This document shows, piece by piece, positions 5,425-55,659 of a stretch of DNA of 64,000 nucleotides. Position 1 is the stretch's first letter; each line of letters opens with the position of its first letter. The notes beneath the pieces are model-generated. The model was not told where the DNA came from. It saw nothing but the letters and a program-made list of their open reading frames with translations, and did not search any database. Origin of the DNA: Escherichia coli (GTDB lineage Bacteria; Pseudomonadota; Gammaproteobacteria; Enterobacterales; Enterobacteriaceae); the NCBI RefSeq assembly GCF_024700885.2, contig NZ_CP117016.1; one strand, 5' to 3'. Made by a program: the position numbers and the translations under genes.

Positions 5425-5464
5425 AAGCCCTCCTGAAAATTACCTCATGACCAGAAATTAACAC

Positions 5465-6541: not shown

Positions 6542-6606
6542 CTCTTTTGATACCGAATCTTTTTACTCACAAATTGCCGGAAGTGATCCGGTATGAATAT
6601 TGCGAG

Positions 6607-7283: not shown

Positions 7284-7362
7284 ATCACCCTCACAATGTG
7301 AACTTTGAGTACATGCTATAACAGAACTGACAGTACATTCAAGAGCGAATATCATTGAACTT

Positions 7363-8235: not shown

Positions 8236-8236
8236 T

Positions 8237-8368
8237 ATGGATTTCGACACAATCATGGAAAAGGCTTACGAAGAATACTTCGAAGGCCTTGCCGAAGGCG
8301 AAGAAGCTCTCAGCTTCAGCGAATTTAAACAGGCGCTTTCCAGTTCGGCAAAATCTAACGGCTGATAA
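8237..8368 (+). CDS. ydfB: YdfB-like small prophage protein
   Basis: 43-aa ORF MDFDTIMEKAYEEYFEGLAEGEE... immediately after ydfA (1-bp gap). Confidence 0.5.
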
Positions 8369-8394
8369 GCGAAACAGCACCGCGAGGAATCAGC

Positions 8395-8613
8395 GTGCAG
8401 AAACGAGAACCCGTCATCATCGCGCCAGACTATACCGATGATGAACTTTATGAGTGGATGCGCCAGAAAATTAATGCAGCGCAGGATCTGAAATGGGCTA
8501 ATGAAGCCAGGGCTAAGCAGGCTGAAAATCTGTCCGCTCTGGAGCAGGATATCACCAATCTGGAAAAAGCAGCGGCATTAAGCATTGCCAGAATGATTAC
8601 ATACCCGCGTTAG
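8395..8613 (+). CDS. ydfC: YdfC-like prophage protein
   Basis: 72-aa ORF MQKREPVIIAPDYTDDELYEWMRQKINAAQDLKWANEARAKQ...; order ydfA-ydfB-ydfC as in the Qin dicB operon. Confidence 0.55.
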   Translation: MQKREPVIIAPDYTDDELYEWMRQKINAAQDLKWANEARAKQAENLSALEQDITNLEKAAALSIARMITYPR

Positions 8614-8954
8614 TAGCTAATCAACAAAGCTAAGGTTAGTAATTAAGGAGTTCTCCACGGGTGAGGTGGAGTGCGTGCGCCGGACACGGGTGAGCATCCG
8701 GCACTGACAGTTTACTGAAAGGATATTTCCCTGAAAAGTCAGACCATAACGCGAAAGCGCACGGCGAGGTAGCTGGTTCATAGATAGCCTGTCGTTAAAT
8801 TTTCGTCGACCGTGCGCTTCCGGTTGTGGCAATCCGCGAAATGGCGCGGCGGTAAGTATGGCGGGGTTATTCCTTCCCCCGTTGAGGACACCGGGTTGTC
8901 AGGTTGACCATACGCTTAAGTGACAACCCCGCTGCAACGCCCTCTGTTATCAAT

Positions 8955-9007
8955 TTTCTGGTGACGTTTGGCGGTATCAGTTTTACTCCGTGACTGCTCT
9001 GCCGCCC
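8955..9007 (+). ncRNA. dicF: DicF small RNA (ftsZ-targeting sRNA processed from the dicB operon transcript)
   Basis: 53-nt stretch tttctggtgacgtttggcggtatcagttttactccgtgactgctctgccgccc followed by TTTTT; matches the DicF sequence as I recall it and sits between ydfC and dicB. Confidence 0.75.
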
Positions 9008-9181
9008 TTTTTAAAGTGAATTTTGTGATGCGGTGAATGCGGCTAAGCGCACGCGGAACAGTTAAAACCAAAAACAGTGTTATGGGTGGATTCTCTGTAT
9101 CCGGCGTTAATTGTTAACTGGTTAACGTCACCTGGAGGCACCAGGCACCGCATCACAAAACTCATTGTTGAGGGCGCGATA

Positions 9182-9370
9182 ATGAAAACGTTATTACCAA
9201 ACGTTAATACGTCTGAAGGTTGTTTTGAAATTGGTGTCACTATCAGTAATCCTGTATTTACTGAAGAGGCCATTAACAAAAGAAAACACGAACGGGAGTT
9301 ATTAAATAAAGTATGCATTGTTTCAATGCTGGCCCGTTTACGTCTGATGCCAAAAGGATGTGCACAATGA
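9182..9370 (+). CDS. dicB: cell-division inhibitor DicB
   Basis: 62-aa product MKTLLPNVNTSEGCFEIGVTISNPVFTEEAINKRKHERELLNKVCIVSMLARLRLMPKGCAQ is near-identical to DicB as I recall it. Confidence 0.85.
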   Translation: MKTLLPNVNTSEGCFEIGVTISNPVFTEEAINKRKHERELLNKVCIVSMLARLRLMPKGCAQ

Positions 9371-9558
9371 ATCCAGTATTTGCACTTATTCTGACGGTTT
9401 TTCTTGTTTCCGGAGAGCCAGTTGATATTGCAGTCAGTGTTCACAGAACAATGCAGGAATGTATGGCAGCAGCAACCGAACAGAAAATTCCAGGCAACTG
9501 TTATCCGGTCGATAAAGTTATTCACCAGGATAATAACGAAATCCCGGCAGGATTTTAA
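9367..9558 (+). CDS. ydfD: YdfD-like small protein with N-terminal hydrophobic segment
   Basis: 63-aa ORF MNPVFALILTVFLVSGEPVDIAV...; ATGA overlap with dicB stop. Confidence 0.65.
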   Translation: MNPVFALILTVFLVSGEPVDIAVSVHRTMQECMAAATEQKIPGNCYPVDKVIHQDNNEIPAGF

Positions 9559-9651
9559 AACAGCACCGTAATAAATATCCAGTTTCATTCTTATATGTCA
9601 GCAATGGCAGAGATTTGTTCACCCTTAAATCTGTGATGAGGTTTATCAATA

Positions 9652-12093
9652 ATGAGCACTGATAAAGAAGAATTTGCACTATATTGCGAAGCAAAAAATG
9701 ACAAAGTAAGAAAACGCCTAGGAATTAAAGGTGGTTTTTACTGGACTACAGCAAAAAAATTATCTGTTGCAATCTCCCGCTGCATTACCGCAATGGATGA
9801 CAACGATTATGATGAAGACGACTTTAAAAAACCCGTCCGCGTCAATTTGCCCGTTGTTGACGACCTTCCGCCAGAAGGCGTGTTTGATACTGAATTCTGC
9901 AACCGCTATGAAAAAGGCGGGAAAGATGGCATCACAATGACATTTATCGGCCCTTCCCCCTCTGTTCAGGACAAATCAGCCAGCACTGATAATACCAACA
10001 TCAACGGCGAAGACATGACTGAGATTGAGGAGAGCATGCTTCTACCTGTCTCCGGTCAGGAACTGCCCATTCGTTGGCTTGCTCAACACGGCAGCGAAAA
10101 ACCAGTAACGCACGTTTCACGCGACGAACTCCAGGCATTACACATTGCACGGGCTGAAGAACTACCGGCTGTTACTGCCCTGGCTATTTCGCATAAAACC
10201 AGTCTGCTCGACTCGCTGGAGATTCGCGACCTCCACAAACTGGTTCGTGACACTGACAAAGTTTTCCCTAATCCTGGTAATTCAGACCTGGGACTAATAA
10301 CTGCTTTTTTCGAAGCATACCTGGACGCTGACTACACTGATCGGGGTCTGCTGACAAAAGAGTGGATGAAAGGAAATCGTGTTTCACGCATCACCCGCAC
10401 GGCTTCCGGTGCTAATGCTGGCGGTGGGAACAAAACCGATCGCAGTCCGAATTTAGTACACACCCTCGACACACTGGATGTGGAGATTGCAGCAGCCACA
10501 CTTCCGATGGATTTTAATATTTATGAAATTCCGGGCAGCGTTTATCGTCGCGCAAAAGAAGTAGTCCTGAAAAAAGAAAGTCCGTTCAAAGAATGGTCCG
10601 CAGCACTTCGTGCAACCCCGGGTATTCTGGACTATTCCCGCGCCGCTATTTTTGCACTTATCCGAAGCGCACACCCTGAATTTTATCACTACCCGGGACG
10701 CCTTCAGGGGTATATCAACGCCTATTTGACGGAAACTGATCACGAGAACCCCAGCAAGGAAACTCTCACAGCTGCCCGGCATACGCCGGAAAAAGATATC
10801 CTGGAAGAAATTAACCGCGAGGTGGTTACTGAGCGTGAAACAGAAGAAGAAAAACCACAACCATCTGACGCAATGGCAGGTGAACAGGCAACAACTGAAA
10901 CAATGGAACCGGATACAACTGAACATTGCCAGAACGCGCAGTCGCTGGATGCTCAGTCGCAGGTGAGTTCCGCTAACCAAGTAAAAGTCACCGCTGACGA
11001 AGTAAACAAAATTATGCAGGCAGCCAATATCAGCCAGCCTGACGCCGATAAGTTACTTGCTGTATCGCGTGGTGAATTTGTTGAGGGGATTAGCGACCCT
11101 AATGATCCGAAATGGGTCAAGGGGATCCAGACTCGCGATTCTGTGAACCAGAACCAGCATGAATCGGAACGGAACGACCAAAAAGCGGAACAAAACAGCC
11201 CAAATGCGTTACAAAACGAGCCAGAAACGAAACAATCCGAACCAGTAGCGCAACAGGAACCGGAAAAAGTCTGCACCGCCTGCGGTCAGAGCGGTGGCGG
11301 CAACTGCCCTGATTGTGGCGCGGTGATGGGCGACGCAACATACCAGAAAACATTCGATGAAGAGAATCAGGTTGAAGTTCAGGAAAATGATCCGGAGGAA
11401 ATGGAAGGCGCTGAACATCCACACAAGGAGAATGCTGGCAGCGCTCAGGACCACGCCAGCGATAGTAAAACTGGCGAGACGGCAGATCCCTTAATTACGG
11501 TGAATGGTCATCACGAAATCACATCCACCAGCAGGACGTGTGACCATCTAATGATCGACCTTGAAACCATGGGAAAAAATCCTGATGCCCCGATCATCTC
11601 AATAGGTGCAATATTTTTCGATCCGCAAACCGGAGATATGGGACCGGAATTTAGTAAGACTATCGATCTGGAAACTGCTGGCGGAGTCATTGATCGGGAC
11701 ACCATTAAATGGTGGCTTAAGCAATCACGCGAAGCGCAATCTGCCATTATGACCGATGAAATCCCGTTAGATGATGCACTGTTACAATTGCGGGAATTTA
11801 TCGACGAAAACTCCGGTGAATTTTTTGTTCAGGTCTGGGGAAATGGAGCCAACTTCGACAACACGATTTTGCGCCGTTCATACGAACGGCAGGGGATCCC
11901 CTGCCCGTGGCGTTACTACAACGATCGCGATGTACGCACAATCGTTGAGCTGGGGAAAGCCATAGACTTCGATGCCAGAACGGCTATTCCATTCGAAGGT
12001 GAGCGCCATAATGCACTTGATGACGCTCGTTACCAGGCAAAATACGTTTCAGCTATCTGGCAAAAACTGATCCCGAGTCAGGCTGATTTTTAA
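9652..12093 (+). CDS. YdfE-like large prophage protein with C-terminal DEDDh (DnaQ-like) 3'-5' exonuclease domain
   Basis: 813-aa ORF; the C-terminal ~190 aa carry exonuclease motifs (MIDLETMG..., ...[13 protein letters not shown]..., ...HNALDDAR); preceded by an acidic low-complexity linker and a Cys4 zinc ribbon (CTACG...CPDCG); in the ydfE position between ydfD and xis. Confidence 0.6.
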
Positions 12094-12151
12094 TGTTCAA
12101 CCCTGATCGCCGCTAACCGCATATAGTTAGCGGCGGTTATGAGATATAGCT

Positions 12152-12355
12152 ATGAGCAGCTTATTTTTAACCGAAGATGAATTGCTAATATTAACGGGCT
12201 GCAAATATGCAAGCCACCAGCGAAAATGGTTAATGGAAAACGGGCTTCCGTTCTATACCAATCGTAGTGGCAAACCGATTGTCAGCCGGGATCTATTTAC
12301 CTGCAATAAAACTTTACCACCACGCGAGGTAGAGCCGAATTTTGGTGCGATCTGA
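12152..12355 (+). CDS. xis: excisionase (Xis-like)
   Basis: 67-aa ORF immediately upstream of and overlapping (ATGA-type) the integrase start. Confidence 0.6.
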   Translation: MSSLFLTEDELLILTGCKYASHQRKWLMENGLPFYTNRSGKPIVSRDLFTCNKTLPPREVEPNFGAI

Positions 12356-13380
12356 TGGGAAGACGAAGGAAAAATCCTGAACACGAAAAATTACCTCCAA
12401 ATGTATACCCAAATAAATATAGTTATGTATGGAAACCAACATCCAGAGAATCTGTAACACTAACCGCCATCAAGGATGGTTTAGCTGCTTTATGGAAAAA
12501 GTATGAGGAAACTGTAAATAATCGCGATCGTGCAATGACATTCGGTCGCTTGTGGGAAAAATTCCTCGCCAGCGCCTGTTACAGTGACCTTAGCCCAAGA
12601 ACACAAAAAGATTATCTGCAACATCAAAAAAAGTTGCTTGCCGTATTCGGTAAGGTACCAGCGGATTCCATAAAACCAGAACACATCCGTCGATACATGG
12701 ACAAAAGAGGGGAACAGAGCAAAACGCAAGCCAACCATGAAAAAAGCAGTATGTCCCGCGTTTACAGTTGGGGATATGAGCGAGGGTACGTGAAGGTTAA
12801 CCCATGTGCAGGTGTAAGTAAATTCAAGGCCAAAAACCGCGAACGATATGTAACCGACAAAGAATACCAGGCAGTATTAAGCGTTGCACCTCTTCCTGTT
12901 TTTATCGCAATGGAAATTGCCTATCTGTGTGCAGCGAGGGTTTCCGATGTGTTATCGCTGAAATGGGAGCAGATTGGAAACGACGGGATCTTTATCCAGC
13001 AAGGGAAAACAGGGAAAAAACAGATAAAAGCATGGAGTCCACGATTACAGGCGGCGATCGAAAAAGCAAAACAGTTACCAACATCCGCCTATGTAATCAG
13101 CAATCAATACGGCAACCGATATATGTACAAAGGCTTTAACGAAATGTGGGTAGAAGCAAGAAATCGCGCAGGCAAAATTTCAGGTATTTTAACCGACTTC
13201 ACCTTTCATGATCTGAAGGCGAAAGGAATTTCAGACTATGAAGGAAGCAGTCGGGATAAGCAACTTTTCTCTGGTCACAAAACCGAGGGGCAAGTGCTAA
13301 TCTATGACAGGAAGGTTAAAGTTTCACCGACACTTGATGTCCCGTTACCTGAAAATATTCCAAGAAAATATTCCAAGTAA
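12355..13380 (+). CDS. int: lambda-family tyrosine integrase
   Basis: 341-aa ORF starting MGRRR... like lambda Int; transcribed toward the tRNA-Ser 3' end, which lies 52 bp downstream. Confidence 0.85.
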   Translation: MGRRRKNPEHEKLPPNVYPNKYSYVWKPTSRESVTLTAIKDGLAALWKKYEETVNNRDRAMTFGRLWEKFLASACYSDLSPRTQKDYLQHQKKLLAVFGKVPADSIKPEHIRRYMDKRGEQSKTQANHEKSSMSRVYSWGYERGYVKVNPCAGVSKFKAKNRERYVTDKEYQAVLSVAPLPVFIAMEIAYLCAARVSDVLSLKWEQIGNDGIFIQQGKTGKKQIKAWSPRLQAAIEKAKQLPTSAYVISNQYGNRYMYKGFNEMWVEARNRAGKISGILTDFTFHDLKAKGISDYEGSSRDKQLFSGHKTEGQVLIYDRKVKVSPTLDVPLPENIPRKYSK

Positions 13381-13432
13381 TTCCAAGTGTGATTTTTGTC
13401 ACTGACTTAATGATGTATAAGTGATTGAATTT

Positions 13433-13522
13433 TGGCGGAGAGAGGGGGATTTGAACCCCCGGTAGAGTTGCCCCTACTCCGGTTTTCGAGACCGGTCCGT
13501 TCAGCCGCTCCGGCATCTCTCC
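13433..13522 (-). tRNA. serU: tRNA-Ser (anticodon CGA)
   Basis: Reverse complement reads GGAGAGATGCCGGAGCGGCTGAACGGACCGGTCTCGAAAACCGG...CTCTCTCCGCCA, a 90-nt class II tRNA with anticodon CGA and encoded CCA. Confidence 0.9.
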
Positions 13523-13615
13523 GTTCAGATGGTTGCCATGATGCCAGGAAATTTGGCATTTTAACAGTCCCTGTCCGTGCAATTTTGTTCAAGTGACGAG
13601 TTTGCGAGCAAAACG

Positions 13616-14413
13616 ATGATTAAGTGGCCCTGGAAAGTACAAGAATCAGCACATCAAACTGCCCTTCCCTGGCAGGAAGCACTATCGATCCCCCTTTTAA
13701 CGTGTCTGACGGAACAGGAACAAAGCAAATTAGTCACTCTTGCCGAACGTTTTTTACAGCAAAAGCGGCTTGTTCCTTTACAGGGCTTTGAACTGGATTC
13801 ATTAAGAAGCTGCCGGATAGCACTTCTATTTTGCCTGCCCGTTCTGGAGTTAGGACTGGAATGGCTGGATGGTTTTCATGAAGTCTTAATTTATCCTGCG
13901 CCATTTGTGGTCGATGACGAATGGGAAGACGATATCGGTTTGGTGCATAACCAACGTATTGTTCAGTCAGGTCAGAGCTGGCAGCAAGGGCCTATCGTTT
14001 TGAACTGGTTGGATATACAAGATTCTTTTGATGCTTCTGGTTTTAACCTGATTATTCATGAAGTCGCTCATAAGCTGGACACCCGTAATGGCGATCGCGC
14101 CAGCGGAGTTCCCTTTATTCCGTTGCGTGAGGTTGCTGGCTGGGAACACGATCTTCATGCTGCAATGAACAATATTCAGGAAGAAATCGAATTAGTTGGC
14201 GAGAATGCGGCGAGCATCGATGCTTATGCTGCCAGTGATCCTGCTGAATGTTTTGCCGTACTTTCTGAATATTTCTTTAGCGCCCCAGAACTTTTTGCTC
14301 CTCGTTTCCCTTCATTGTGGCAACGTTTCTGCCAATTTTATCAACAAGATCCTTTGCAGAGACTGCATCACGCTAATGATACAGACTCGTTTTCGGCGAC
14401 GAATGTTCATTAA
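13616..14413 (+). CDS. mtfA: Mlc titration factor A (MtfA/YeeI)
   Basis: 265 aa from internal Met [14 protein letters not shown]...; HEVAHKLD zinc-peptidase-like motif; conserved serU-mtfA-asnT synteny of E. coli. Confidence 0.85.
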
Positions 14414-14466
14414 TTAACAACTTTGCAGATTAATTAACCAATTGAAATGGCTTATGAAATTTAGTG

Positions 14467-14495
14467 TTGACAGACAAGGTACCGCTAAGTAATAT
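14467..14495 (+). promoter_or_regulatory. sigma70 promoter of asnT (TTGACA-17bp-TAATAT, GC-rich discriminator)
   Basis: ttgaca at 14467-14472 and taatat at 14490-14495, followed by gcgcccc; the same architecture precedes all four tRNA-Asn copies. Confidence 0.55.
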
Positions 14496-14513
14496 GCGCC
14501 CCGTTCTCACGAT

Positions 14514-14589
14514 TCCTCTGTAGTTCAGTCGGTAGAACGGCGGACTGTTAATCCGTATGTCACTGGTTCGAGTCCAGTCAGAGGAGCCA
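14514..14589 (+). tRNA. asnT: tRNA-Asn (GUU)
   Basis: 76-nt TCCTCTGTAGTTCAGTCGGTAGAACGGCGGACTGTTAATCCGTATGTCACTGGTTCGAGTCCAGTCAGAGGAGCCA; its 3' end is the HPI attachment site. Confidence 0.95.
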
Positions 14590-14750
14590 ATTTTCTGTTT
14601 TCTTGCATCCTTGCGAATCTTTATCTGATGTTGATTCAACAGGTTAGTGTGAAAACTCTTCTCGGTGCATTTTGATTTTACCCTACGCATCGGGAAAAAT
14701 TGGTGGTCAAATCTGGGGTCGGGTTAGTTCGATAATGGAGTGACCCCCAT

Positions 14751-16013
14751 ATATCCCTTACCGACGCAAAAATCCGCACCCTCAAGCCTTCTGATAAACC
14801 CTTTAAAGTCTCCGATTCTCACAGTCTGTATCTGCGGGTCAAGCCGGGTGGCTCCCGCCACTGGTATCTCAAATACCGTATTAGCGGTAAAGAATCCCGC
14901 ATTGCGCTGGGTGCCTATCCAGCCATCTCCCTGTCTGATGCGCGACAGCAACGTGAAGGTATCCGTAAAATGCTGGCGCTGAATATCAACCCGGTACAGC
15001 AGCGGGCTGCTGTACGTGGCTCACGAACACCGGAGAAAGTTTTTAAAAACGTGGCGCTGGCGTGGCATAAAAGTAACAGGAAATGGTCGCAGAACACCGC
15101 CGACCGTCTGCTTGCCAGCCTGAACAATCACATCTTTCCGGTCATCGGGAACCTACCTGTATCAGAACTTAAACCCCGTCATTTCATTGACCTGCAGAAA
15201 GGGATCGAGGAAAAAGGTCTGCTGGAGGTTGCGTCCCGCACACGGCAGCACCTGAGTAACATAATACGCCATGCGGTCCATCAGGAGTTAATCGATACGA
15301 ACCCTGCAGCAAACCTTGGCGGCGTGACCACACCTCCTGTCAGACGGCACTATCCTGCCCTGCCGCTGGAGCGGCTGCCTGAACTGCTTGAACGTATTGG
15401 GGCATATCATCAGGGCCGTGAACTGACCCGGCATGCCGTTCTGCTGATGCTGCATGTGTTCATTCGCTCCAGTGAACTGCGTTTCGCCCGCTGGTCAGAG
15501 ATTGATTTCACAAACCGAGTCTGGACGATACCCGCGACGCGAGAACCCATTATTGGCGTGCATTATTCCGGCCGCGGGGCAAAAATGCGAATGCCGCATA
15601 TCGTCCCCCTCTCAGAACAGTCCATCGCCATTCTGAAACAGATTAAGGATATCACCGGTAATAATGAACTGATCTTCCCCGGCGACCATAACCCGTATAA
15701 GCCAATGTGTGAAAACACGGTCAATAAGGCACTGCGGGTGATGGGTTACGACACGAAAAAGGATATCTGCGGTCACGGCTTCCGGGCAATGGCATGCAGT
15801 GCGCTGATGGAATCGGGTTTATGGGCAAAGGACGCAGTAGAACGCCAGATGAGTCATCAGGAGCGCAATACCGTGCGCATGGCTTATATTCATAAGGCAG
15901 AGCACCTGGAAGCCCGCAAAGCGATGATGCAGTGGTGGTCGGATTATCTGGAAGCATGCCGAGAATCTTATGCACCGCCTTATACAATTGGTAAAAATAA
16001 GTTTATCCCATAG
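14751..16013 (+). CDS. int: P4-family tyrosine integrase of the High-Pathogenicity Island; no canonical start codon in frame
   Basis: Frame open from stop at 14733 to 16013; in-frame N-terminal region ...SLTDAKIRTLKPSDKPFKVSDSHSLYLRVKPGGSRHWYLKYRISGKESRIALGAYPAIS... is the P4-type arm-binding domain, but there is no ATG/GTG/TTG before the Met at 14970 (codon 14751-14753 is ATA). The 5' coordinate is therefore uncertain. Confidence 0.75.
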   Translation: MSLTDAKIRTLKPSDKPFKVSDSHSLYLRVKPGGSRHWYLKYRISGKESRIALGAYPAISLSDARQQREGIRKMLALNINPVQQRAAVRGSRTPEKVFKNVALAWHKSNRKWSQNTADRLLASLNNHIFPVIGNLPVSELKPRHFIDLQKGIEEKGLLEVASRTRQHLSNIIRHAVHQELIDTNPAANLGGVTTPPVRRHYPALPLERLPELLERIGAYHQGRELTRHAVLLMLHVFIRSSELRFARWSEIDFTNRVWTIPATREPIIGVHYSGRGAKMRMPHIVPLSEQSIAILKQIKDITGNNELIFPGDHNPYKPMCENTVNKALRVMGYDTKKDICGHGFRAMACSALMESGLWAKDAVERQMSHQERNTVRMAYIHKAEHLEARKAMMQWWSDYLEACRESYAPPYTIGKNKFIP

Positions 16014-16206
16014 TATACTAACGAATCCCACACTCTGGCAAATTACCACCACCTCCACAGGAGGTGGTTCTATATAGACTTTTATCAACTTCATGACGAA
16101 AAACACCTATTTTATCCCAAAAGAAGACAATAGAGTCACAGAGGAATCAAAGAGCGACTCAATTGTCTTTGGACAGTCTGGTTGTGAGGTTAGAAAACAG
16201 TTACTC

Positions 16207-17511
16207 CTACACCATTAAATAGGGCGCAATGCTCGCTAATTTCTCCCGGGTTTCTGTCAGTTCGCGTTCCGGCGTAGATTGCGCGATGATTCCCGCCCCC
16301 GCCTGTATCCAGCAGCGCTGGCTATCCTGAAATACGGAACGCAGAACTAGCGCCGCATCAAAGCGCGTATCGTCCAGCAGCAGGATTGCGCCGGAATAAA
16401 GCTCTCGCGGCGTCTTCTCAATTTGCATAATCGCGTTCAGAGCAGCATTTTTAGGGATACCTGAGGCGGTAATCGACGGAAACAGCACGGTAAACGCATC
16501 CCAGGCATCCTTGTTTTCCGCAAGCTGACCGCTCACGCCAGACCCCAGATGCTGAACGCTGCCGCGCTGGCGAACCGACATTAAATCTTCAACCACCACG
16601 CTGCCCGGCTGGCAAACAGCCTCCAGTTCAGCAATAGCTTCTTTGACAGAAAGGATATGCTCAAGCACCTCTTTACTGTCGTGCAGCAGTTCTGCCTCTT
16701 TCGCCTTATTATGCTCCGGGTTTCCCATGCGATCGCGGGTGCCCGCAAGCGGTTCAGTGACCACTTTATTGCCCGTCACTGACATCACCAGTTCCGGGCT
16801 AAAGCCCAGCGCTTCGCGTCCTTCCTGACGGAACATAAACGAGCGCACAGGCGTGTTTGCCTGCCGCCCGTATAACAGCGTGGCGGGCATATCAATCCGC
16901 GATGGCAGGGGAATGGCGCGCGAGACAATCACTTTGACATACTCGCCACGGCGGATCTCCGCAACGGCGCGCGCAACCTGTTGTTTATATGCCTCACCAT
17001 TGAGGGCGGTATCCACCGCCAGTGGTGCGTTCTGCGTCGTTGTACCGGCCTCTTTTACCCACTCGCACAAACGTCGGCACCCGTCGGCGGAGTCCGCATA
17101 AACGGTGACATTTCCCTTTTCAAAAATAAGTTCTTCACGGGGAACGGTTAACGTCAGCAGCGGCCACTCCCCGGCGTTAAAGGCAATCCCCCGCGCATGC
17201 GCCGCAAAGTTGAACCCAACCTGTCCATATACCCGACGTCCTTTCACCTGAGGATGCGCCATAAAACGACGCGCGCAGTCGGCAATGGAATCCACCGCCC
17301 ATTTTTGCTCCCCAGCATCATCAATAAATGTCGCCTGCGTTCCGTCGGCATTAATGTGCAGCCGTGCCTGGCACCCTTTGCCTAAATACCAACAGGGTTG
17401 ACGCTCATAGACATAACACTCTTCTTCTGCGAACTGGCGTAAAACGCCAGAAATCGTCGGTAGCCATTGTTCCTCTGGTAACGCCAGATGTAGAAATTCA
17501 CTGATTTTCAT
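16207..17511 (-). CDS. ybtS: salicylate synthase YbtS (Irp9)
   Basis: 434-aa chorismate-utilising enzyme ORF; last gene of the ybtPQXS operon, next to int as in the Yersinia HPI. Confidence 0.9.
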   Translation of the reverse strand: MKISEFLHLALPEEQWLPTISGVLRQFAEEECYVYERQPCWYLGKGCQARLHINADGTQATFIDDAGEQKWAVDSIADCARRFMAHPQVKGRRVYGQVGFNFAAHARGIAFNAGEWPLLTLTVPREELIFEKGNVTVYADSADGCRRLCEWVKEAGTTTQNAPLAVDTALNGEAYKQQVARAVAEIRRGEYVKVIVSRAIPLPSRIDMPATLLYGRQANTPVRSFMFRQEGREALGFSPELVMSVTGNKVVTEPLAGTRDRMGNPEHNKAKEAELLHDSKEVLEHILSVKEAIAELEAVCQPGSVVVEDLMSVRQRGSVQHLGSGVSGQLAENKDAWDAFTVLFPSITASGIPKNAALNAIMQIEKTPRELYSGAILLLDDTRFDAALVLRSVFQDSQRCWIQAGAGIIAQSTPERELTETREKLASIAPYLMV

Positions 17512-17538
17512 CCCTTACCTCTCTGTGTTATTCCCGGA

Positions 17539-18819
17539 TCAATCAATTGCGCTTGTCATCAGTTCTCTTGCCGAATGCAGCCGGATATAAGCAACCCACG
17601 CCGCCAGCAACGTGAATGCCCCGGCAAACAGGAAGCAGGCCGCATAGCCAAAATGTTGAGCAACAACGCCACCGATAACGCCAGCCAGAATGGCGATTGC
17701 CGCGTCAGTACATTGAAAGAGGGTGAAGTCGACACCGGCCTGCAAAGGCGATGAAAGCGACATCAGCGTGGCGTAAAGACAGACCAGCGCGCAGGCCAGC
17801 GAAATGGACTGGACAATGACCAGACACTGGAGAATCTGCAGCAGCAGATGACCCGGCGCCATCATGAGCGTCATCACCACCGCCAGCAGCGCGATCCCCT
17901 GGACGCCATAAGCCGTCAACAGCGCTCTGCCGGGTGAGGTGTATTTCATCAGCAATCCGCCGGCCAGCGTTCCTGCTATGCCCGCTGCAATATTGCCGCC
18001 GCTGAACAGCGCGCCCAATGCGGACATGCTCAACCCATGATCCAACAACAGCGGTGCCAGAAGAGGCAGCACAAACCGCATGCCTGAATTCAGCATCAAT
18101 ACCAGCAGTAAGCCCAGGCGCGCCTGCTTCCTCCTTAGCGCATAACCTAACGCCGGAACATGCGGGATAGTCGCTGTTCGCGTCGGCTCCGTAATGCGCC
18201 ACAGCGGGAGTGACAGCGCCATAATCAGCACCGCCATCATCAGCATGGCGACAGGCCAGCCGGATGCCGCCGACAGCATCAGGAACACCCCGCCGCCGCA
18301 CATCATTCCCAGATAGCTGCCGCCGACCTGCACGCTGTTTCCCCAGCCGTAACCCGTGCGGGTCAGTTGATCGACACAAAAGCCGTCGCTGGCGATATCA
18401 ATGGTGGAGGCGACCGTGCCTGCCACCATAAACAGAACAAATAACGCGACGATTTGCGTATCGGGGAATCCCCCTTCTCGCCCAAACCAGCCAATCGCTG
18501 CGGCAATAGTCAGGATCGCCGCTAGCGCGACCTGACCACGCAGGATTAACATGCGGGAACGGCGTTCCTGGCTACCGGGCGGAAGCCGCCAGCGCTCGAT
18601 CCACGGCGCCCAAATAAACTTCAGCGCCCAGGGCAGCATAAACAGGGTTGTCGCACCGGCAAGCGCCAGCGAACCGCCAGCAGCGCGCACCAGCGCGGGT
18701 AAGGACTGCATAGACAGCGCCGATACCAGACTCTGCGTCACATAGACGCCGGCAATAGCAAAAATCACCCGCCCGGTCGTCAACGTCAGAGGTTTCACAT
18801 TCGACTGAACATCACTCAT
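17539..18819 (-). CDS. ybtX: MFS-type inner-membrane protein YbtX (Irp8)
   Basis: Polytopic membrane protein; start set at internal Met (MSDVQSNVKPLTL...), giving 426 aa and an 8-bp overlap with the ybtQ stop; the 467-aa extended ORF is probably not used. Confidence 0.85.
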   Translation of the reverse strand: MSDVQSNVKPLTLTTGRVIFAIAGVYVTQSLVSALSMQSLPALVRAAGGSLALAGATTLFMLPWALKFIWAPWIERWRLPPGSQERRSRMLILRGQVALAAILTIAAAIGWFGREGGFPDTQIVALFVLFMVAGTVASTIDIASDGFCVDQLTRTGYGWGNSVQVGGSYLGMMCGGGVFLMLSAASGWPVAMLMMAVLIMALSLPLWRITEPTRTATIPHVPALGYALRRKQARLGLLLVLMLNSGMRFVLPLLAPLLLDHGLSMSALGALFSGGNIAAGIAGTLAGGLLMKYTSPGRALLTAYGVQGIALLAVVMTLMMAPGHLLLQILQCLVIVQSISLACALVCLYATLMSLSSPLQAGVDFTLFQCTDAAIAILAGVIGGVVAQHFGYAACFLFAGAFTLLAAWVAYIRLHSARELMTSAID

Positions 18820-20614
18820 GCACCCACTCTCCAGACGCGGAACCCCCGTCGTCGCGCCACACGCGCGCGGCCATTTGCGCCTGCCACAGCGCCTGATAAC
18901 GTCCATGATGTGAGAGCAATTGCGCATGAGTACCCTGCTCAACCACCTGTCCCTCTTCCATCACCAGAATGTTTCCGGCCCCGGCGATGGTGGATAAACG
19001 GTGAGCGATGATAATCACCGTCCGGTTGTGAACCAGGTTATCGATCGCTTTTTGCACCGCCAGCTCGCTTTCAATATCCAGCGCGGCAGTCGGTTCATCG
19101 AGAATGACGACCGGCGCGTTTTTCAATAACGCTCTGGCAATGGAAATCCGCTGGCGCTCGCCGCCCGATAGCTGGCCGCCCATCTCTCCCATTGGCGTCA
19201 GCCAGCCTTGCGGAAGACGGGAAATAAACTCAAGGCACTGCGCCGCGCGGGCGGCCTCTTCTACCTCCTGCCGCGTCGCCTGTGGGCGCGCGATACGGAT
19301 ATTCGCCAGCAGCGTGTCATCAAACAGCCAGACATCCTGGAAAACAACAGAAATCAGGCTATTGAGCTGTTCCGGCGTCAGGCGGCGAATATCGACGCCG
19401 CCAATAGAAATCTGCCCTTGCTGCGGATCGGCATAGCGCATTAACAGTTTGGTGACCGTAGTTTTGCCTGCGCCGGAGGCACCCACCAGCGCGCTCATAC
19501 TGGCTGCCGGGAACGTCAAAGAAACATGATTAAGCGCGTGGCCGTCACCTTCTTCGTAGCGATAGCTGACGTTGTCAAAGCGGATATCGTAACGTTCCGG
19601 CATCTCGCTTTGCTCTGCGACGGGAAGCGGTGCTATCGCCATAAACTGCTCAATCCGTTGCAGGGCGCTGGCGATCAGTTCCACAACCGAGGTGTAGCTG
19701 ATAAACATCGCCATCGGTTCTGCGAAGCGCATAATCATCGCGACGGCGGCAATCAAAAAGGCGAGGTTCAGAGTGCCCGTCACTACCCAGACGATCCCGG
19801 ATAACACCACCACCTGTAGGCCCAACTCCACGACGCTGGCGATCAGCATCGTTGCGCCAGCGCCCTGACGGTGAGTGCGGGTCTGTAAGTTTTCCAGCGC
19901 ATTGAAATGCGCCAGCAGCGCCCGGCTTTTATCGGCATCGCTGCCGCAGGTGCGCAATACCATCATCCCCTGAGCAAATTCAACGATATCGCCGCTCAGA
20001 CGCTGGTGCGCTTCCCCCAGCGTCTGCATTTGTCGCCGCATCGCCGGGCGGCGCCAGTAATAAAACGGCACCAGCAGAGGGAAGATCAGCAACATCACCA
20101 GCCCCAGCCGCCAGTCTATCCACAATGTCGCCAGCGACGCCGTCAGCGGCGTGACAATGGTGAGCAGCAAAATATTGGCTATCGCAATAACATAATTGAG
20201 GTTTTCATCCACGCTGCCCAGCAGCAAGGCGTTCATTTCACCCGCCCTGCCGCGCTGGAGCTTATCCAGCGGCACGCGGCGTAACTGCTCGCCAAGTCGC
20301 AGGCGCAACTCATGGGTAGCCTGCGCCAGATGACCACGGTATTCAAAGCCCAGGCCATACCAGCGTAGCACCAGCGTCACAATTGCGGCGACGCTGAAGG
20401 CCATAGCCCAGTTAAGAAGTTGCGGCGCGTCTCCCCGTAACAGCGCATCAATGATCGGATAAAGACAGGCAAAGGCGATCCCCTGCATGAATGCCGCCAG
20501 CAACAGCGCCAGCATACTGCGTCGCAGCATCCTGGCCTGACTGCCAACGCTGGAGATAAGCTGGCGCCAGATGACGCGCCAGGCCAGGTTATCCGCAGGA
20601 TTATTGTCTTTCAT
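18812..20614 (-). CDS. ybtQ: ABC transporter permease/ATPase fusion YbtQ (Irp7)
   Basis: 600 aa from internal Met; N-terminal six-TM exporter-type domain plus Walker A GASGAGKTT and signature LSGGERQRISIARAL; overlaps ybtP stop by 14 bp. Confidence 0.9.
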   Translation of the reverse strand: MKDNNPADNLAWRVIWRQLISSVGSQARMLRRSMLALLLAAFMQGIAFACLYPIIDALLRGDAPQLLNWAMAFSVAAIVTLVLRWYGLGFEYRGHLAQATHELRLRLGEQLRRVPLDKLQRGRAGEMNALLLGSVDENLNYVIAIANILLLTIVTPLTASLATLWIDWRLGLVMLLIFPLLVPFYYWRRPAMRRQMQTLGEAHQRLSGDIVEFAQGMMVLRTCGSDADKSRALLAHFNALENLQTRTHRQGAGATMLIASVVELGLQVVVLSGIVWVVTGTLNLAFLIAAVAMIMRFAEPMAMFISYTSVVELIASALQRIEQFMAIAPLPVAEQSEMPERYDIRFDNVSYRYEEGDGHALNHVSLTFPAASMSALVGASGAGKTTVTKLLMRYADPQQGQISIGGVDIRRLTPEQLNSLISVVFQDVWLFDDTLLANIRIARPQATRQEVEEAARAAQCLEFISRLPQGWLTPMGEMGGQLSGGERQRISIARALLKNAPVVILDEPTAALDIESELAVQKAIDNLVHNRTVIIIAHRLSTIAGAGNILVMEEGQVVEQGTHAQLLSHHGRYQALWQAQMAARVWRDDGGSASGEWVHE

Positions 20615-43014: not shown

Positions 43015-45036
43015 ATGAAAATGACACGGCTTTATCCTCTGGCCTTGGGGGGATTATTGCTCCCCGCCATTGCTAATGCCCAGACTTCACAGCAAGACGA
43101 AAGCACGCTGGTGGTTACCGCCAGTAAACAATCTTCCCGCTCGGCATCAGCCAACAACGTCTCGTCTACTGTTGTCAGCGCGCCGGAATTAAGCGACGCC
43201 GGCGTCACCGCCAGCGACAAACTCCCCAGAGTCTTGCCCGGGCTCAATATTGAAAATAGCGGCAACATGCTTTTTTCGACGATCTCGCTACGCGGCGTCT
43301 CTTCAGCGCAGGACTTCTATAACCCCGCCGTCACCCTGTATGTCGATGGCGTCCCTCAGCTTTCCACCAACACCATCCAGGCGCTTACCGATGTGCAAAG
43401 CGTGGAGTTGCTGCGAGGCCCACAGGGAACGTTATATGGCAAAAGCGCTCAGGGCGGGATCATCAACATCGTCACCCAGCAGCCGGACAGCACGCCGCGC
43501 GGCTATATTGAAGGCGGCGTCAGTAGCCGCGACAGTTATCGAAGTAAGTTCAACCTGAGCGGCCCCATTCAGGATGGCCTGCTGTACGGCAGCGTCACCC
43601 TGTTACGCCAGGTTGATGACGGCGACATGATTAACCCCGCGACGGGAAGCGATGACTTAGGCGGCACCCGCGCCAGCATAGGGAATGTGAAACTGCGTCT
43701 GGCGCCGGACGATCAGCCCTGGGAAATGGGCTTTGCCGCCTCACGCGAATGTACCCGCGCCACCCAGGACGCCTATGTGGGATGGAATGATATTAAGGGC
43801 CGTAAGCTGTCGATCAGCGATGGTTCACCAGACCCGTACATGCGGCGCTGCACTGACAGCCAGACCCTGAGTGGGAAATACACCACCGATGACTGGGTTT
43901 TCAACCTGATCAGCGCCTGGCAGCAGCAGCATTATTCGCGCACCTTCCCTTCCGGTTCGTTAATCGTCAATATGCCTCAGCGCTGGAATCAGGATGTGCA
44001 GGAGCTGCGCGCCGCAACCCTGGGCGATGCGCGTACCGTTGATATGGTGTTTGGGCTGTACCGGCAGAACACCCGCGAGAAGTTAAATTCAGCCTACGAC
44101 ATGCCGACAATGCCTTATTTAAGCAGTACCGGCTATACCACCGCTGAAACGCTGGCCGCATACAGTGACCTGACCTGGCATTTAACCGATCGTTTTGATA
44201 TCGGCGGCGGCGTGCGCTTCTCGCATGATAAATCCAGTACACAATATCACGGCAGCATGCTCGGCAACCCGTTTGGCGACCAGGGTAAGAGCAATGACGA
44301 TCAGGTGCTCGGGCAGCTATCCGCAGGCTATATGCTGACCGATGACTGGAGAGTGTATACCCGTGTAGCCCAGGGATATAAACCTTCCGGGTACAACATC
44401 GTGCCTACTGCGGGTCTTGATGCCAAACCGTTCGTCGCCGAGAAATCCATCAACTATGAACTTGGCACCCGCTACGAAACCGCTGACGTCACGCTGCAAG
44501 CCGCGACGTTTTATACCCACACCAAAGACATGCAGCTTTACTCTGGCCCGGTCGGGATGCAGACATTAAGCAATGCGGGTAAAGCCGACGCCACCGGCGT
44601 TGAGCTTGAAGCGAAGTGGCGGTTTGCGCCAGGCTGGTCATGGGATATCAATGGCAACGTGATCCGTTCCGAATTCACCAATGACAGTGAGTTGTATCAC
44701 GGTAACCGGGTGCCGTTCGTACCACGTTATGGCGCGGGAAGCAGCGTGAACGGCGTGATTGATACGCGCTATGGCGCACTGATGCCCCGACTGGCGGTTA
44801 ATCTGGTCGGGCCGCATTATTTCGATGGCGACAACCAGTTGCGGCAAGGCACCTATGCCACCCTGGACAGCAGCCTGGGCTGGCAGGCGACTGAACGGAT
44901 GAACATTTCCGTCTATGTCGATAACCTGTTCGACCGTCGTTACCGTACCTATGGCTACATGAACGGCAGCAGCGCCGTCGCGCAGGTCAATATGGGTCGC
45001 ACCGTCGGTATCAATACGCGAATTGATTTCTTCTGA
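43015..45036 (+). CDS. fyuA: TonB-dependent yersiniabactin/pesticin outer-membrane receptor FyuA (Psn)
   Basis: 673-aa ORF with N-terminal signal peptide, plug and beta-barrel pattern, C-terminal aromatic residue (...NTRIDFF). Confidence 0.92.
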   Translation: MKMTRLYPLALGGLLLPAIANAQTSQQDESTLVVTASKQSSRSASANNVSSTVVSAPELSDAGVTASDKLPRVLPGLNIENSGNMLFSTISLRGVSSAQDFYNPAVTLYVDGVPQLSTNTIQALTDVQSVELLRGPQGTLYGKSAQGGIINIVTQQPDSTPRGYIEGGVSSRDSYRSKFNLSGPIQDGLLYGSVTLLRQVDDGDMINPATGSDDLGGTRASIGNVKLRLAPDDQPWEMGFAASRECTRATQDAYVGWNDIKGRKLSISDGSPDPYMRRCTDSQTLSGKYTTDDWVFNLISAWQQQHYSRTFPSGSLIVNMPQRWNQDVQELRAATLGDARTVDMVFGLYRQNTREKLNSAYDMPTMPYLSSTGYTTAETLAAYSDLTWHLTDRFDIGGGVRFSHDKSSTQYHGSMLGNPFGDQGKSNDDQVLGQLSAGYMLTDDWRVYTRVAQGYKPSGYNIVPTAGLDAKPFVAEKSINYELGTRYETADVTLQAATFYTHTKDMQLYSGPVGMQTLSNAGKADATGVELEAKWRFAPGWSWDINGNVIRSEFTNDSELYHGNRVPFVPRYGAGSSVNGVIDTRYGALMPRLAVNLVGPHYFDGDNQLRQGTYATLDSSLGWQATERMNISVYVDNLFDRRYRTYGYMNGSSAVAQVNMGRTVGINTRIDFF

Positions 45037-45044
45037 TTATTGTA

Positions 45045-45074
45045 AAAGGGATACCGAAAAGGTATCCCTTTTAC
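45045..45074 (+). terminator. hairpin terminator downstream of fyuA
   Basis: aaaagggatacc-gaaaa-ggtatcccttttac, 9 bp after the fyuA stop; the 3' T-tract is short. Confidence 0.45.
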
Positions 45075-45606
45075 ACCACTAGTTAAAACCAGTAACTCAG
45101 CAGAGTCGCAAAAAATATTAATCCATAGTGATTATTTAAACAATGAAATTGCGATTAGGATAAATAGATTTAACTTTCTCGTTCCTTTCTCTCCTTATAC
45201 TAAAGAAATAATCATATCAAAATAAAAATTCACAACAGTGCAACATTAAAAAATACAACCAACAAACAATCCTATATACAAGGCACATCTCCAGAATATA
45301 AAAGCACAGACAAACAACCTAAAAAAAACAACCCCATACATATAAATTATTTTATAGGTAAAATAGATTATATATTCTCATAGCTACCACAAACTATACT
45401 AGCCTGAACTATATTTATTCTGCTGCAATCAATGCATACATAACACAAATATCACTCAGGTACACTACTCAAACCACGCTGGGATTTTTCCTCAAGTTAT
45501 AATCATCACCCCGAAAATCATTCGGCATTTACTCATTAAATAGTCACCCCAGGTGATGCTGCCAACTTACTGATTTAGTGTATGATGGTGTTTTTGAGGT
45601 GCTCCA

Positions 45607-45882
45607 GTGGCTTCTGTTTCTATCAGCTGTCCCTCCTGTTCAGCTACTGACGGGGTGGTGCGTAACGGCAAAAGCACCGCCGGACATCAGCGCTATCTCT
45701 GCTCTCACTGCCGTAAAACATGGCAACTGCAGTTCACTTACACCGCTTCTCAACCCGGTACGCACCAGAAAATCATTGATATGGCCATGAATGGCGTTGG
45801 ATGCCGGGCAACTGCCCGCATTATGGGCGTTGGCCTCAACACGATTTTACGTCACTTAAAAAACTCAGGCCGCAGTCGGTAA
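45607..45882 (+). CDS. insA: IS1 InsA
   Basis: 91-aa product [24 protein letters not shown]... (GTG start), the zinc-finger InsA. Confidence 0.88.
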
Positions 45883-46304
45883 CCTCGCGCATACAGCCGG
45901 GCAGTGACGTCATCGTCTGCGCGGAAATGGACGAACAGTGGGGCTATGTCGGGGCTAAATCGCGCCAGCGCTGGCTGTTTTACGCGTATGACAGGCTCCG
46001 GAAGACGGTTGTTGCGCACGTATTCGGTGAACGCACTATGGCGACGCTGGGGCGTCTTATGAGCCTGCTGTCACCCTTTGACGTGGTGATATGGATGACG
46101 GATGGCTGGCCGCTGTATGAATCCCGCCTGAAGGGAAAGCTGCACGTAATCAGCAAGCGATATACGCAGCGAATTGAGCGGCATAACCTGAATCTGAGGC
46201 AGCACCTGGCACGGCTGGGACGGAAGTCGCTGTCGTTCTCAAAATCGGTGGAGCTGCATGACAAAGTCATCGGGCATTATCTGAACATAAAACACTATCA
46301 ATAA
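45801..46304 (+). CDS. insB: IS1 InsB reading frame (expressed as InsAB' by -1 frameshift)
   Basis: 167-aa ORF overlapping the insA 3' end in the -1 frame. Confidence 0.8.
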
Positions 46305-46319
46305 GTTGGAGTCATTACC

Positions 46320-46708
46320 CCGTATTGCAGTGTTATATTCTTCGCTAAATCTTTTATTTCTTTTAATGTTGCGTGATCCTGCATAGTCATTGTGACTAAT
46401 GTTAATTTAGTCTGTTCAAGTTTGAGCGCATTAAAGACTTCTAAATTAATTGTCGACGTAACAATTAATAGATGCTTAATTTTATGCAATTCAAGCGCCC
46501 GAATAACAGGAAAGATGGCCATAGCATCGCCAATCTGATCGGGAATATGTATGACAACAAAGTCTGTTTTTTCAATATTAAAATTATAAGCTTTATAATC
46601 GTAGTAACTAAATGCAATACGTCTCAACAATGATACTAAAAACATAACTAACCTCGCCTCCCTACTGGTTATAATGCAATGCAGTCTATCAGAATCATCA
46701 GGGTGCAA
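46320..46708 (-). pseudogene. yeeL: 5' fragment of a glycosyltransferase-family-9-like gene (yeeL-like), truncated by IS1
   Basis: ORF ...LVMFLVSLLRRIAFSYYDYKAYNFNIEKTDFVVIHIPDQIGDAMAIFPVIRALEL... resembles the N-terminus of heptosyltransferase-type GT9 proteins; its reading frame runs into the IS1 end at 46319. Confidence 0.5.
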
Positions 46709-46959
46709 TTTTGTGCATATGCGGACTTTTATGTTTCATATCTCGAACCTGTGGGCCATCTGCTTAATCCTTAAACAACACCAGCAACTCCTGCGCTTTC
46801 ATCTTCCATCGAATTTTTCATGTTGCCGCTAATCAGCCATAAAATCATTTGCAGATGCGCTCTGTCGAGGTAGTCTCATAAGGTTCGTTTATAGATCGAC
46901 GGCAATGTGAGTTACCTTTTCCATACTAATTATAAAAAGACAGTACAAACAGGATCATT

Positions 46960-48276
46960 ATGGACTCCACGCTCATCTCCACTCGTCCCGATGAAGGGAC
47001 GCTTTCGTTAAGTCGCGCCCGACGAGCTGCGTTAGGCAGTTTCGCTGGTGCCGTCGTCGACTGGTATGATTTTTTACTCTATGGCATTACCGCCGCACTG
47101 GTGTTTAATCGCGAGTTTTTCCCGCAAGTAAGCCCGGCGATGGGAACGCTCGCCGCATTTGCCACCTTTGGTGTCGGCTTCCTTTTCCGACCGCTCGGCG
47201 GTGTCATTTTCGGTCACTTTGGTGACCGACTGGGACGTAAGCGCATGTTAATGCTGACCGTCTGGATGATGGGCATCGCGACAGCCTTGATTGGTATTCT
47301 TCCTTCATTCTCGACCATTGGGTGGTGGGCACCTATTTTGCTGGTGACACTGCGTGCCATTCAGGGATTTGCCGTCGGCGGCGAATGGGGAGGCGCAGCG
47401 TTGCTTTCCGTTGAAAGTGCGCCGAAAAATAAAAAAGCCTTTTACAGTAGCGGTGTACAAGTTGGCTACGGAGTAGGTTTACTGCTTTCAACCGGACTGG
47501 TTTCATTGATCAGTATGATGACGACTGACGTACAGTTTTTAAGCTGGGGCTGGCGCATTCCTTTCCTGTTTAGCATCGTACTGGTACTGGGAGCATTGTG
47601 GGTGCGCAATGGCATGGAGGAGTCCGCGGAATTTGAACAACAGCAACATAATCAAGCGGCCGCGAAAAAACGCATCCCGGTTATCGAAGCTCTGTTACGA
47701 CATCCCGGTGCTTTCCTGAAGATTATTGCGCTACGACTGTGCGAGTTGCTGACGATGTACATCGTTACCGCCTTTGCACTTAATTATTCAACCCAGAATA
47801 TGGGGTTACCGCGCGAACTTTTCCTTAATATTGGTTTGCTGGTAGGTGGATTAAGCTGCCTGACAATTCCCTGTTTTGCCTGGCTTGCCGATCGTTTTGG
47901 TCGCCGCAGGTTTTATATCACAGGTGCGTTAATCGGAATGTTGAGCGCATTTCCTTTCTTTATGGCGCTTGAAGCACAATCTATTTTCTGGATAGTTTTC
48001 TTCTCCATAATGCTGGCAAACATTGCGCATGACATGGTGGTGTGTGTGCAACAACCGATGTTTACCGAAATGTTTGGTGCCAGTTATCGCTATAGTGGCG
48101 CTGGAGTCGGTTATCAGGTTGCCAGTGTGGTTGGTGGTGGATTTACACCTTTTATTGCCGCTGCACTCATCACTTACTTTGCCGGGAACTGGCATAGCGT
48201 CGCCATTTATTTGCTGGCTGGATGCCTGATTTCCGCAATAACCGCTTTGTTGATGAAAGACAATCAACGCGCTTGA
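46960..48276 (+). CDS. shiA: shikimate/dehydroshikimate MFS transporter ShiA
   Basis: 438-aa MFS ORF with sugar-transporter motifs (GHFGDRLGRKR); conserved position before amn. Confidence 0.88.
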   Translation: MDSTLISTRPDEGTLSLSRARRAALGSFAGAVVDWYDFLLYGITAALVFNREFFPQVSPAMGTLAAFATFGVGFLFRPLGGVIFGHFGDRLGRKRMLMLTVWMMGIATALIGILPSFSTIGWWAPILLVTLRAIQGFAVGGEWGGAALLSVESAPKNKKAFYSSGVQVGYGVGLLLSTGLVSLISMMTTDVQFLSWGWRIPFLFSIVLVLGALWVRNGMEESAEFEQQQHNQAAAKKRIPVIEALLRHPGAFLKIIALRLCELLTMYIVTAFALNYSTQNMGLPRELFLNIGLLVGGLSCLTIPCFAWLADRFGRRRFYITGALIGMLSAFPFFMALEAQSIFWIVFFSIMLANIAHDMVVCVQQPMFTEMFGASYRYSGAGVGYQVASVVGGGFTPFIAAALITYFAGNWHSVAIYLLAGCLISAITALLMKDNQRA

Positions 48277-50891: not shown

Positions 50892-51345
50892 TTATATGTT
50901 AAAGAAATCTGTCTTTATGGCAGATTTCTTTAATCTCATATAATCCTTATAAAAATATAATGTTTAACTCGTCATATTGCTTATAAAAAATCCCCGTTCC
51001 CAGAGAAATAATATTTATTAAAATGGCAGGTCTTCTTTTTCTGATTACCGAAGACAAAGTGGCAATTACGTATAGTTTCCCGATAAAGACGCGACAGCTA
51101 CATCCCGCATAAGGCATTTTTCTCTTTATCTTTGTACGGTACTTCATGGAACAGAATTTTTGACCTTGTGAATCGTGATGTCTGTTGGGGAGGAGCAATT
51201 TGCTCACTGAAGCGTGAGACTCGATTAAGCGCACGAAACACAGAAATCAAAAAACCCGGCCACTTTTTTACAAACTGACCGGGTAAAAATAATTTTTATT
51301 TTTTAACTGCCTTGAGACTCATAGAGATGTCTCAAAACTAAAATT

Positions 51346-51421
51346 TGGCTCCTCTGACTGGACTCGAACCAGTGACATACGGATTAACAGTCCGCCGTTC
51401 TACCAACTGAACTACAGAGGA
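51346..51421 (-). tRNA. asnW: tRNA-Asn (GUU), variant copy with one D-loop substitution
   Basis: Reverse complement is identical to the other three Asn tRNAs except AGTTGGTAG instead of AGTCGGTAG in the D-loop. Confidence 0.93.
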
Positions 51422-53169: not shown

Positions 53170-53245
53170 TCCTCTGTAGTTCAGTCGGTAGAACGGCGGA
53201 CTGTTAATCCGTATGTCACTGGTTCGAGTCCAGTCAGAGGAGCCA
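53170..53245 (+). tRNA. asnU: tRNA-Asn (GUU)
   Basis: 76-nt sequence identical to asnT. Confidence 0.95.
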
Positions 53246-53254
53246 AATTTCTGA

Positions 53255-55577: not shown

Positions 55578-55653
55578 TCCTCTGTAGTTCAGTCGGTAGA
55601 ACGGCGGACTGTTAATCCGTATGTCACTGGTTCGAGTCCAGTCAGAGGAGCCA
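55578..55653 (+). tRNA. asnV: tRNA-Asn (GUU)
   Basis: 76-nt sequence identical to asnT. Confidence 0.95.
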
Positions 55654-55659
55654 AATTCA

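Follow-up and report, generated by a model that had tools for sequence, protein, structure and literature searches.

The window, by which we mean the whole stretch of 64,000 nucleotides of Escherichia coli DNA that was analysed, is 100% identical over all compared parts to the record of E. coli MLI114 (NZ_CP117013.1). It carries a high-pathogenicity island (HPI, the yersiniabactin island) at the 3' end of asnT, with mtfA and serU as neighbours and the integrase further on past position 14590, as is found for the common-type HPI. From the stop codon of fyuA to the start of shiA the window measures 1923 bp, and the features of this interval and its surroundings are as follows.

13433-13522, minus strand: tRNA-Ser gene
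14514-14589, plus strand: asnT, tRNA-Asn GTT (ARAGORN), whose 3' end serves the island as left attachment core
14751-16013, plus strand: HPI tyrosine integrase, 420 codons, a CDS in the MLI114 record
43015-45036, plus strand: fyuA, yersiniabactin receptor of 673 aa and final gene of the island core (ORF list; annotation of the identical record)
45037-45551, no strand: proximal 515 bp of an AT-rich arm, 31% G+C, matching the post-fyuA DNA of EC931 and CRE78
about 45043-45074: fyuA terminator hairpin, within the AT-rich arm
45552-46319, plus strand: complete IS1 of the IS1A type, 768 bp, with IRL towards fyuA and IRR towards yeeL
46320-46645, minus strand: remnant of a GT9 gene (yeeL homologue), first 108 codons, from alignment to EC931 7681-8006 and to K-12 yeeL; a pseudogene according to PGAP
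46646-46959, no strand: yeeL-shiA intergenic region, intact and colinear with EC931 and K-12
46960-48276, plus strand: shiA, shikimate transporter, first intact backbone gene past the island, with amn next (ORF list; annotation)
51346-51421, minus strand: asnW, with a copy of the attachment 17-mer at 51345-51361(-)
53170-53245, plus strand: asnU, with a copy of the 17-mer at 53230-53246(+)
55578-55653, plus strand: asnV, with a copy of the 17-mer at 55638-55654(+); integration site of ICE-type HPIs such as that of CRE78

The integrase gene is an open frame of 420 codons in which the start-codon position reads ATA, the first ATG being found at 14970, 73 codons in; in the identical MLI114 record PGAP nevertheless annotates an intact 420-aa CDS. 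Next to serU, positions 1-13400 are prophage-like: there are genes for an exonuclease, antitermination and a DUF968 protein, and the integrase gene is frameshifted. This region finds a 100% match in MLI114 only, and the next best matches (99.9%) are O166:H15 strains, which are not the relatives identified through the flank of the HPI.

The attachment core can be delimited by pattern search. With up to 3 mismatches allowed over the whole window, the 17-mer CCAGTCAGAGGAGCCAA is found at 14574-14590(+) in asnT and at the three positions listed above for asnW, asnU and asnV, all four copies being the 3' ends of the tRNA-Asn genes; at this level of stringency there is no copy in the window outside the four asn tRNA genes. 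An earlier reading made from the sequence alone (the sequence-only reading) had placed the core at 14573-14589, which is correct save for an offset of one nucleotide, and its proposal that the tRNA-Asn 3' repeat is absent beyond fyuA was borne out by the search: no direct repeat was found between fyuA and the IS1, and when the fyuA-shiA interval (45037-46959) was searched for a degenerate attR with up to 7 mismatches, the best match had 6-7 mismatches, which is the level reached by shuffled sequence.

Homology to K-12 stops 1 bp past asnT (14590) and picks up again inside yeeL, so that 8377 bp of K-12 DNA, made up of yeeJ, the spacer that separates it from asnT, and 727 bp of yeeL, are missing from the window; the comparison confirms the earlier observation that there is no yeeJ between asnT and shiA. 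The yeeL gene is itself a pseudogene in K-12, and the full-length GT9 protein of 350 aa has weak similarity to heptosyltransferases. As had been noticed, the IS1 cuts the reading frame of this gene: its first 326 bp (108 of the 350 codons) are left, and the C-terminal 242 codons are lost.

Six typical HPI-positive genomes (E20, N54, XJW9B277, EC931, JE86-ST05 and AF39) are also unlike K-12 past fyuA. In all six, fyuA is followed by an AT-rich stretch of about 1 kb that has no homology in K-12, then by a yeeJ pseudogene remnant, an intact 350-aa GT9 gene and shiA; the yeeJ remnant of such genomes begins at nt 219 of K-12 yeeJ and has large internal deletions. In HPI-negative genomes a 1047-bp post-fyuA query is matched over its last 36 bp only, and these are yeeJ sequence. 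Since HPI-negative genomes lack the arm, we assign it to the island; the alternative, that the arm is E. coli backbone, is ruled out on the same ground. The proximal arm is 100% identical to that of EC931 and 98.8-99.5% identical to that of the ICE-type island in CRE78, and the similarity to CRE78 ends at EC931 position 4339, the very position at which similarity to K-12 yeeJ starts. Judged from these two alignments, position 4339 is the junction of an old deletion. Within the arm there is an indel of about 207 bp between the ICE-type (CRE78 9298-9504) and common-type (EC931 3618-3630) sequences, the alignments overlapping by 13 bp at its bounds. In the compared segments of Salmonella diarizonae and of Klebsiella michiganensis, the match to the E. 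coli HPI breaks off precisely at the stop codon of fyuA (positions 1520 and 2531), and the arm is therefore not universal in ybt-fyuA islands.

The distribution of this border could be addressed in 5426 complete genomes, of which 2266 have fyuA. The distal arm was found in 2245 of the genomes searched and the whole arm with its junction in 2229, so that the attR-less fusion of the arm to yeeJ nt 219 is present in approximately 2229-2245 of the 2266 fyuA-positive genomes (about 99%), and the distal arm is missing in about 1% of them. In the common-type HPI-positive borders that we examined the 17-mer was not found even with 3 mismatches. The old junction at EC931 position 4339 corresponds to a published one: Schubert et al. 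(2009; PMC2606025) describe, in all HPI-positive ECOR strains but ECOR31, a unique deletion of the fyuA-side border that took the direct repeat and part of the adjoining backbone and so fixed the island chromosomally.

The genome of CRE78 shows what an island of the other type looks like. Its ICE-form HPI lies at asnV, and the arm is followed by an ORF for a 308-aa hypothetical protein, an AlpA-family gene, DUF2857 and TraR genes, a VirB-type T4SS, MobC and cargo; the cargo includes a retron Eco8 effector with reverse transcriptase, an ABC-three-component system and a restriction endonuclease. A lone, exact 17-mer stands beside ldtA about 33.6 kb further on, with a second copy, carrying one mismatch, 2.3 kb before it (the pair lies at 14999-15015 and 17364-17380 of the compared segment); the presence of two 17-mers at the end of the ICE suggests a small tandem element or a remnant. 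The AlpA-like excisionase, the T4SS and mobilisation genes and the terminal 17-bp repeat beyond fyuA are thus all present in this positive control. The window and the ECOR31-type ICE HPI, as represented by CRE78, are alike in the ybt-fyuA core and in the first ~1 kb past fyuA (98.8-99.5%), whereas the hypothetical ORF, AlpA-family gene, T4SS, mobilisation genes, cargo and the terminal 17-mer by ldtA belong to the ICE and have no counterpart in the window, where neither the CRE78 AlpA protein nor the adjacent ICE ORF finds a tblastn match. ICE-type islands, of which that of CRE78 is an example, are alone in having retained the repeat together with the excisionase-like gene and the genes for transfer.

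The ancestral island was of the ICE type: behind the asn tRNA came int, the ybt genes and fyuA, then the AT-rich arm, the hypothetical ORF and the alpA-like excisionase, and after these the T4SS and mobilisation genes and, lastly, the 17-bp repeat. A first deletion, ancient and common to almost all E. coli HPIs, removed everything from about 1006 bp past the fyuA stop up to and including nt 218 of yeeJ, and with it some 31-34 kb of ICE DNA, attR and the spacer between asnT and yeeJ. Having taken both the repeat and the excisionase gene, this deletion fixed the island in place.

The window shares the asnT site, the int-to-fyuA content, the lack of a 17-bp repeat on the fyuA side and the AT-rich arm with the common-type E. 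coli HPI (PMC2606025), and differs from it in that an IS1 has taken the place of the last 491 bp of the arm with the fusion point, of the yeeJ remnant and of the greater part of yeeL. The fusion of the arm to yeeJ nt 219 is not present in the window, since 515 bp of arm are left and EC931 position 4339 lies inside a missing segment of 3833 bp. The nearest relatives, EC931, MLI109 and JE86, have kept the canonical arm-yeeJ' fusion, and its absence from the window is for that reason secondary. By their description, the downstream deletions of ECOR49, ECOR50, ECOR61 and ECOR62 are a similar case of secondary loss past a common-type HPI (PMC2606025).

The IS1 is complete, as had been recognised from the sequence, with both terminal repeats, insA at 45607-45882, an A6C frameshift motif at 45856 and the insB' frame running to 46304. 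It gives NCBIfam hits for IS1 transposase, and its sequence is identical to that of other IS1A copies, including the IS1 at the corresponding junction in strain HSP60. The DNA between fyuA and the IS1 is AT-rich and non-coding as first described, its length being 515 bp where about 470 bp had been given. The 9-mers beside the element differ (GTCACCCCA versus CCGTATTGC), again as proposed, and there is no duplication of 8 or 9 bp. Five other IS1 copies in or near this interval in related genomes, situated at the fyuA end, in the arm, upstream of yeeL, inside yeeL and in yeeO, all have clean duplications of 8-9 bp, which makes the missing duplication at the window's IS1 meaningful; such an absence is expected if the element was rearranged after insertion. 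The same is seen in all three genomes having an IS1 at this fyuA-side junction, none of which shows a duplication. The interval from the fyuA 3' end to shiA is a recurrent target of IS1: independent insertions lie in the final codons of fyuA, about 30 bp past its end, in front of yeeL and within that gene, and in 95 genomes an IS1 stands no more than a few hundred bp from the 5' part of yeeL.

As a pre-deletion reference we used EC931, a near-identical relative in which the interval is undeleted and free of IS elements. EC931 matches the window base for base (100%) in the 3847 bp up to 45551, and from 46320 onwards there is 1 mismatch in 12281 bp (99.992%). Between these two blocks, EC931 positions 3848-7680 (3833 bp) are replaced in the window by the IS1. 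The segment lost comprises 491 bp of distal arm including the old junction, the yeeJ remnant of 2455 bp (a 2.5-kb pseudogene), a spacer of 160 bp and 727 bp from the 3' part of the GT9/yeeL gene. The losses therefore came in two stages, with the ancient border in place before the IS1-linked deletion cut it away. Two neighbouring observations concern JE86-ST05, in which the nac-cbl-yeeO segment between two asn tRNAs (12707-19900) is inverted relative to the window and EC931, and a further integrase-bearing island lies past the third asn tRNA gene.

A query spanning the fyuA-side IS1 junction, at EC931 position 3847, was matched exactly and in a single piece in three of the 5426 genomes, namely MLI114, HSP60 and B19695, all of the same near-identical lineage as EC931. 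The three share this left junction and differ in the right endpoint. In HSP60 the right endpoint is EC931 6819, the GT9 gene is intact and the IS1 is single. In B19695 it is EC931 7554, and a second, divergent IS1 in direct orientation follows 160 bp on, with a 9-bp duplication. In MLI114 it is EC931 7681, and this exact right junction occurs in one assembly among the 5426 genomes. The flanking DNA shows only 0-2 differences in 6-12 kb and is too similar to order the three strains. The junction IS1 of B19695 (9201-9968 of the compared segment) is IS1B-like and differs from that of MLI114 and HSP60 at seven sites between positions 262 and 554, six of which are in common with the IS1 interrupting yeeO in B19695; this suggests gene conversion or IS-IS recombination, and agrees less well with a simple history of one element. 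A chimeric IS1 was also sought through polymorphisms in the window's own copy, and this approach was set aside because the element cannot be told apart from the IS1 of HSP60 or from common IS1A copies. No precursor with an IS1 at the left site, a duplication of GTCACCCCA and an intact right side was found in any of the 5426 complete genomes, nor did junction-spanning queries reveal IS1 copies with a duplication at any of the three right endpoints, the multi-piece matches being IS1 copies at other nearby sites.

Taken together, the right flank of the island very probably underwent two separate deletions, one ancient and shared, the other recent and linked to the IS1. The recent stage is limited to a single clonal lineage of phylogroup-D-like strains: the IS1 lies 515 bp past fyuA, IRL on the fyuA side, and the DNA beyond its IRR has been deleted, 3833 bp of it in MLI114. 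The precursor, with its target duplication, would join the IS1 IRR to GTCACCCCATAGGCCTG; since no such precursor is found among the 5426 genomes, the order of insertion followed by deletion is one that we infer.

The molecular course of the recent stage would probably have been an adjacent deletion promoted by the IS1 transposase, through intramolecular transposition from the IRR end and possibly in steps. A fixed IS junction, nested and variable far endpoints and the lack of a duplication are the textbook signs of IS-promoted adjacent deletion, for which IS1 is the classical example. This process is the most likely one because a single left junction is combined with three right endpoints (6819, 7554 and 7681). 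The lineage shows the constant IS junction at EC931 3847, the variable other end and the missing duplication; a simple insertion as precursor was found in none of the 5426 complete genomes. Missing duplications are known to come from adjacent deletions or from IS-IS recombination, and adjacent deletions often grow stepwise, as documented for IS150 in the LTEE (PMC11708052). With these IS-promoted deletions (IS1 as the classical case; IS150 in the LTEE, PMC11708052) the present lineage has in common that the IS is kept, that there is no duplication, and that one junction is fixed while the endpoints are nested and varied; it departs from them in that no simple-insertion precursor is seen and one relative has another IS1 variant at the fixed junction.

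RecA-dependent homologous recombination between an IS1 in the arm, 515 bp past fyuA, and a second, directly oriented one inside yeeL would delete the intervening DNA along with one IS1 copy and likewise leave one complete IS1 with flanks from two sites and no duplication, exactly as observed, and a second copy for such an exchange was plausibly at hand because the interval is a hot spot for IS1, with several insertions and 95 genomes affected. The second direct IS1 160 bp on in B19695, the IS1B-like junction element of that strain, which looks as if a crossover had replaced most of it, and the lack of a simple-insertion precursor among the 5426 genomes are all in keeping with recombination. 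However, a separate second insertion would be needed for each endpoint, three in all; an IS1 with a duplication was found in no genome, whether at the left site or at one of the three right endpoints, and MLI114 and HSP60, whose endpoints differ, have one and the same IS1 sequence. We regard recombination between two IS1 copies as the main rival but rather unlikely, and adjacent deletion as the preferred explanation.

The sequence-only reading had gone further and proposed that an IS1-associated deletion removed the right junction of the island together with adjacent backbone, and with it the attachment repeat, immobilising an otherwise excisable HPI. The deletion is real, as the comparison with EC931 shows, and it spans the island/backbone junction, although the junction in question is that of the immediate ancestor; with it went what remained of yeeJ and two thirds of the yeeL gene. 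That it also took the repeat was not borne out, for the ancestral junction was already without attR in 2229-2245 of 2266 cases: no common-type HPI examined has a 17-mer at its junction, the same border is present in about 99% of fyuA-positive genomes with no IS1 there, neither the excisionase-like gene nor the transfer module was there any longer, and the ancient deletion responsible is already published (PMC2606025). Since both attR and the excision functions had already gone, the IS1 event did not remove them, and immobilisation by the IS1 is highly improbable. Nor was a K-12-type yeeJ lost here, yeeJ having been reduced to a 2.5-kb pseudogene remnant before the IS1 event. An equally remote explanation is an assembly artefact, in which two IS1 copies with their own duplications were collapsed and the 3.8 kb between them dropped: the exact right junction is found in the MLI114 assembly only, a pattern that repeat collapse can give, but the MLI114 genome is closed and circular, two further independent assemblies share the left junction without the adjoining DNA and with other endpoints, and HSP60 has a single IS1 and an intact yeeL, so that related structures in three independent assemblies make collapse unlikely.

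The second deletion, as we reconstruct it, removed a pseudogene remnant and most of the GT9 gene and left the yeeL-shiA intergenic region and shiA intact; no functional gene is known to have been lost at this stage, since what was left of yeeJ was a pseudogene by then and the yeeL of K-12 is one as well. The attR-less HPI border is already known, and the IS1-linked deletion of 3.8 kb is a rare configuration arising from an ordinary kind of rearrangement.

The shiA-amn segment is identical in ten genomes, and three of the ten have IS1-linked deletions with different endpoints. An isolate from a Korean chicken that belongs to the same lineage, Z1323CEC0006, shows an independent deletion of nearly the same interval, from 46 bp past fyuA into yeeL (EC931 3379-7221), where a 1146-bp IS5-family element (6076-7221) with unlike flanks is found instead. 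The IS5-family-linked deletion is probably shared by its sister isolates Z1323CEC0005 and Z1323CEC0014; at least one of the Korean chicken isolates, and probably all three, carries it. That the fyuA-shiA flank is under recurrent and possibly selected erosion in the MLI114 lineage is a conjecture to which we assign little probability. Were loss of the arm-yeeJ' fusion ORF or of the GT9 gene advantageous, through surface structures or shiA expression, the deletions would represent convergent IS-driven gene loss and not neutral decay.

Our analysis tells apart two events at the right flank of the HPI: a known ancestral deletion that fixed the island, and a recent IS1-linked deletion of pseudogene debris and a GT9 gene. 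The latter is a minor instance, found in nature, of IS1 deletions that are nested and one-sided; it matters little past strain typing, for which the fyuA-IS1 junction at 45551/45552 is a possible lineage marker. The accepted view, that the HPIs of E. coli spread by homologous recombination and not by excision, is unchanged.
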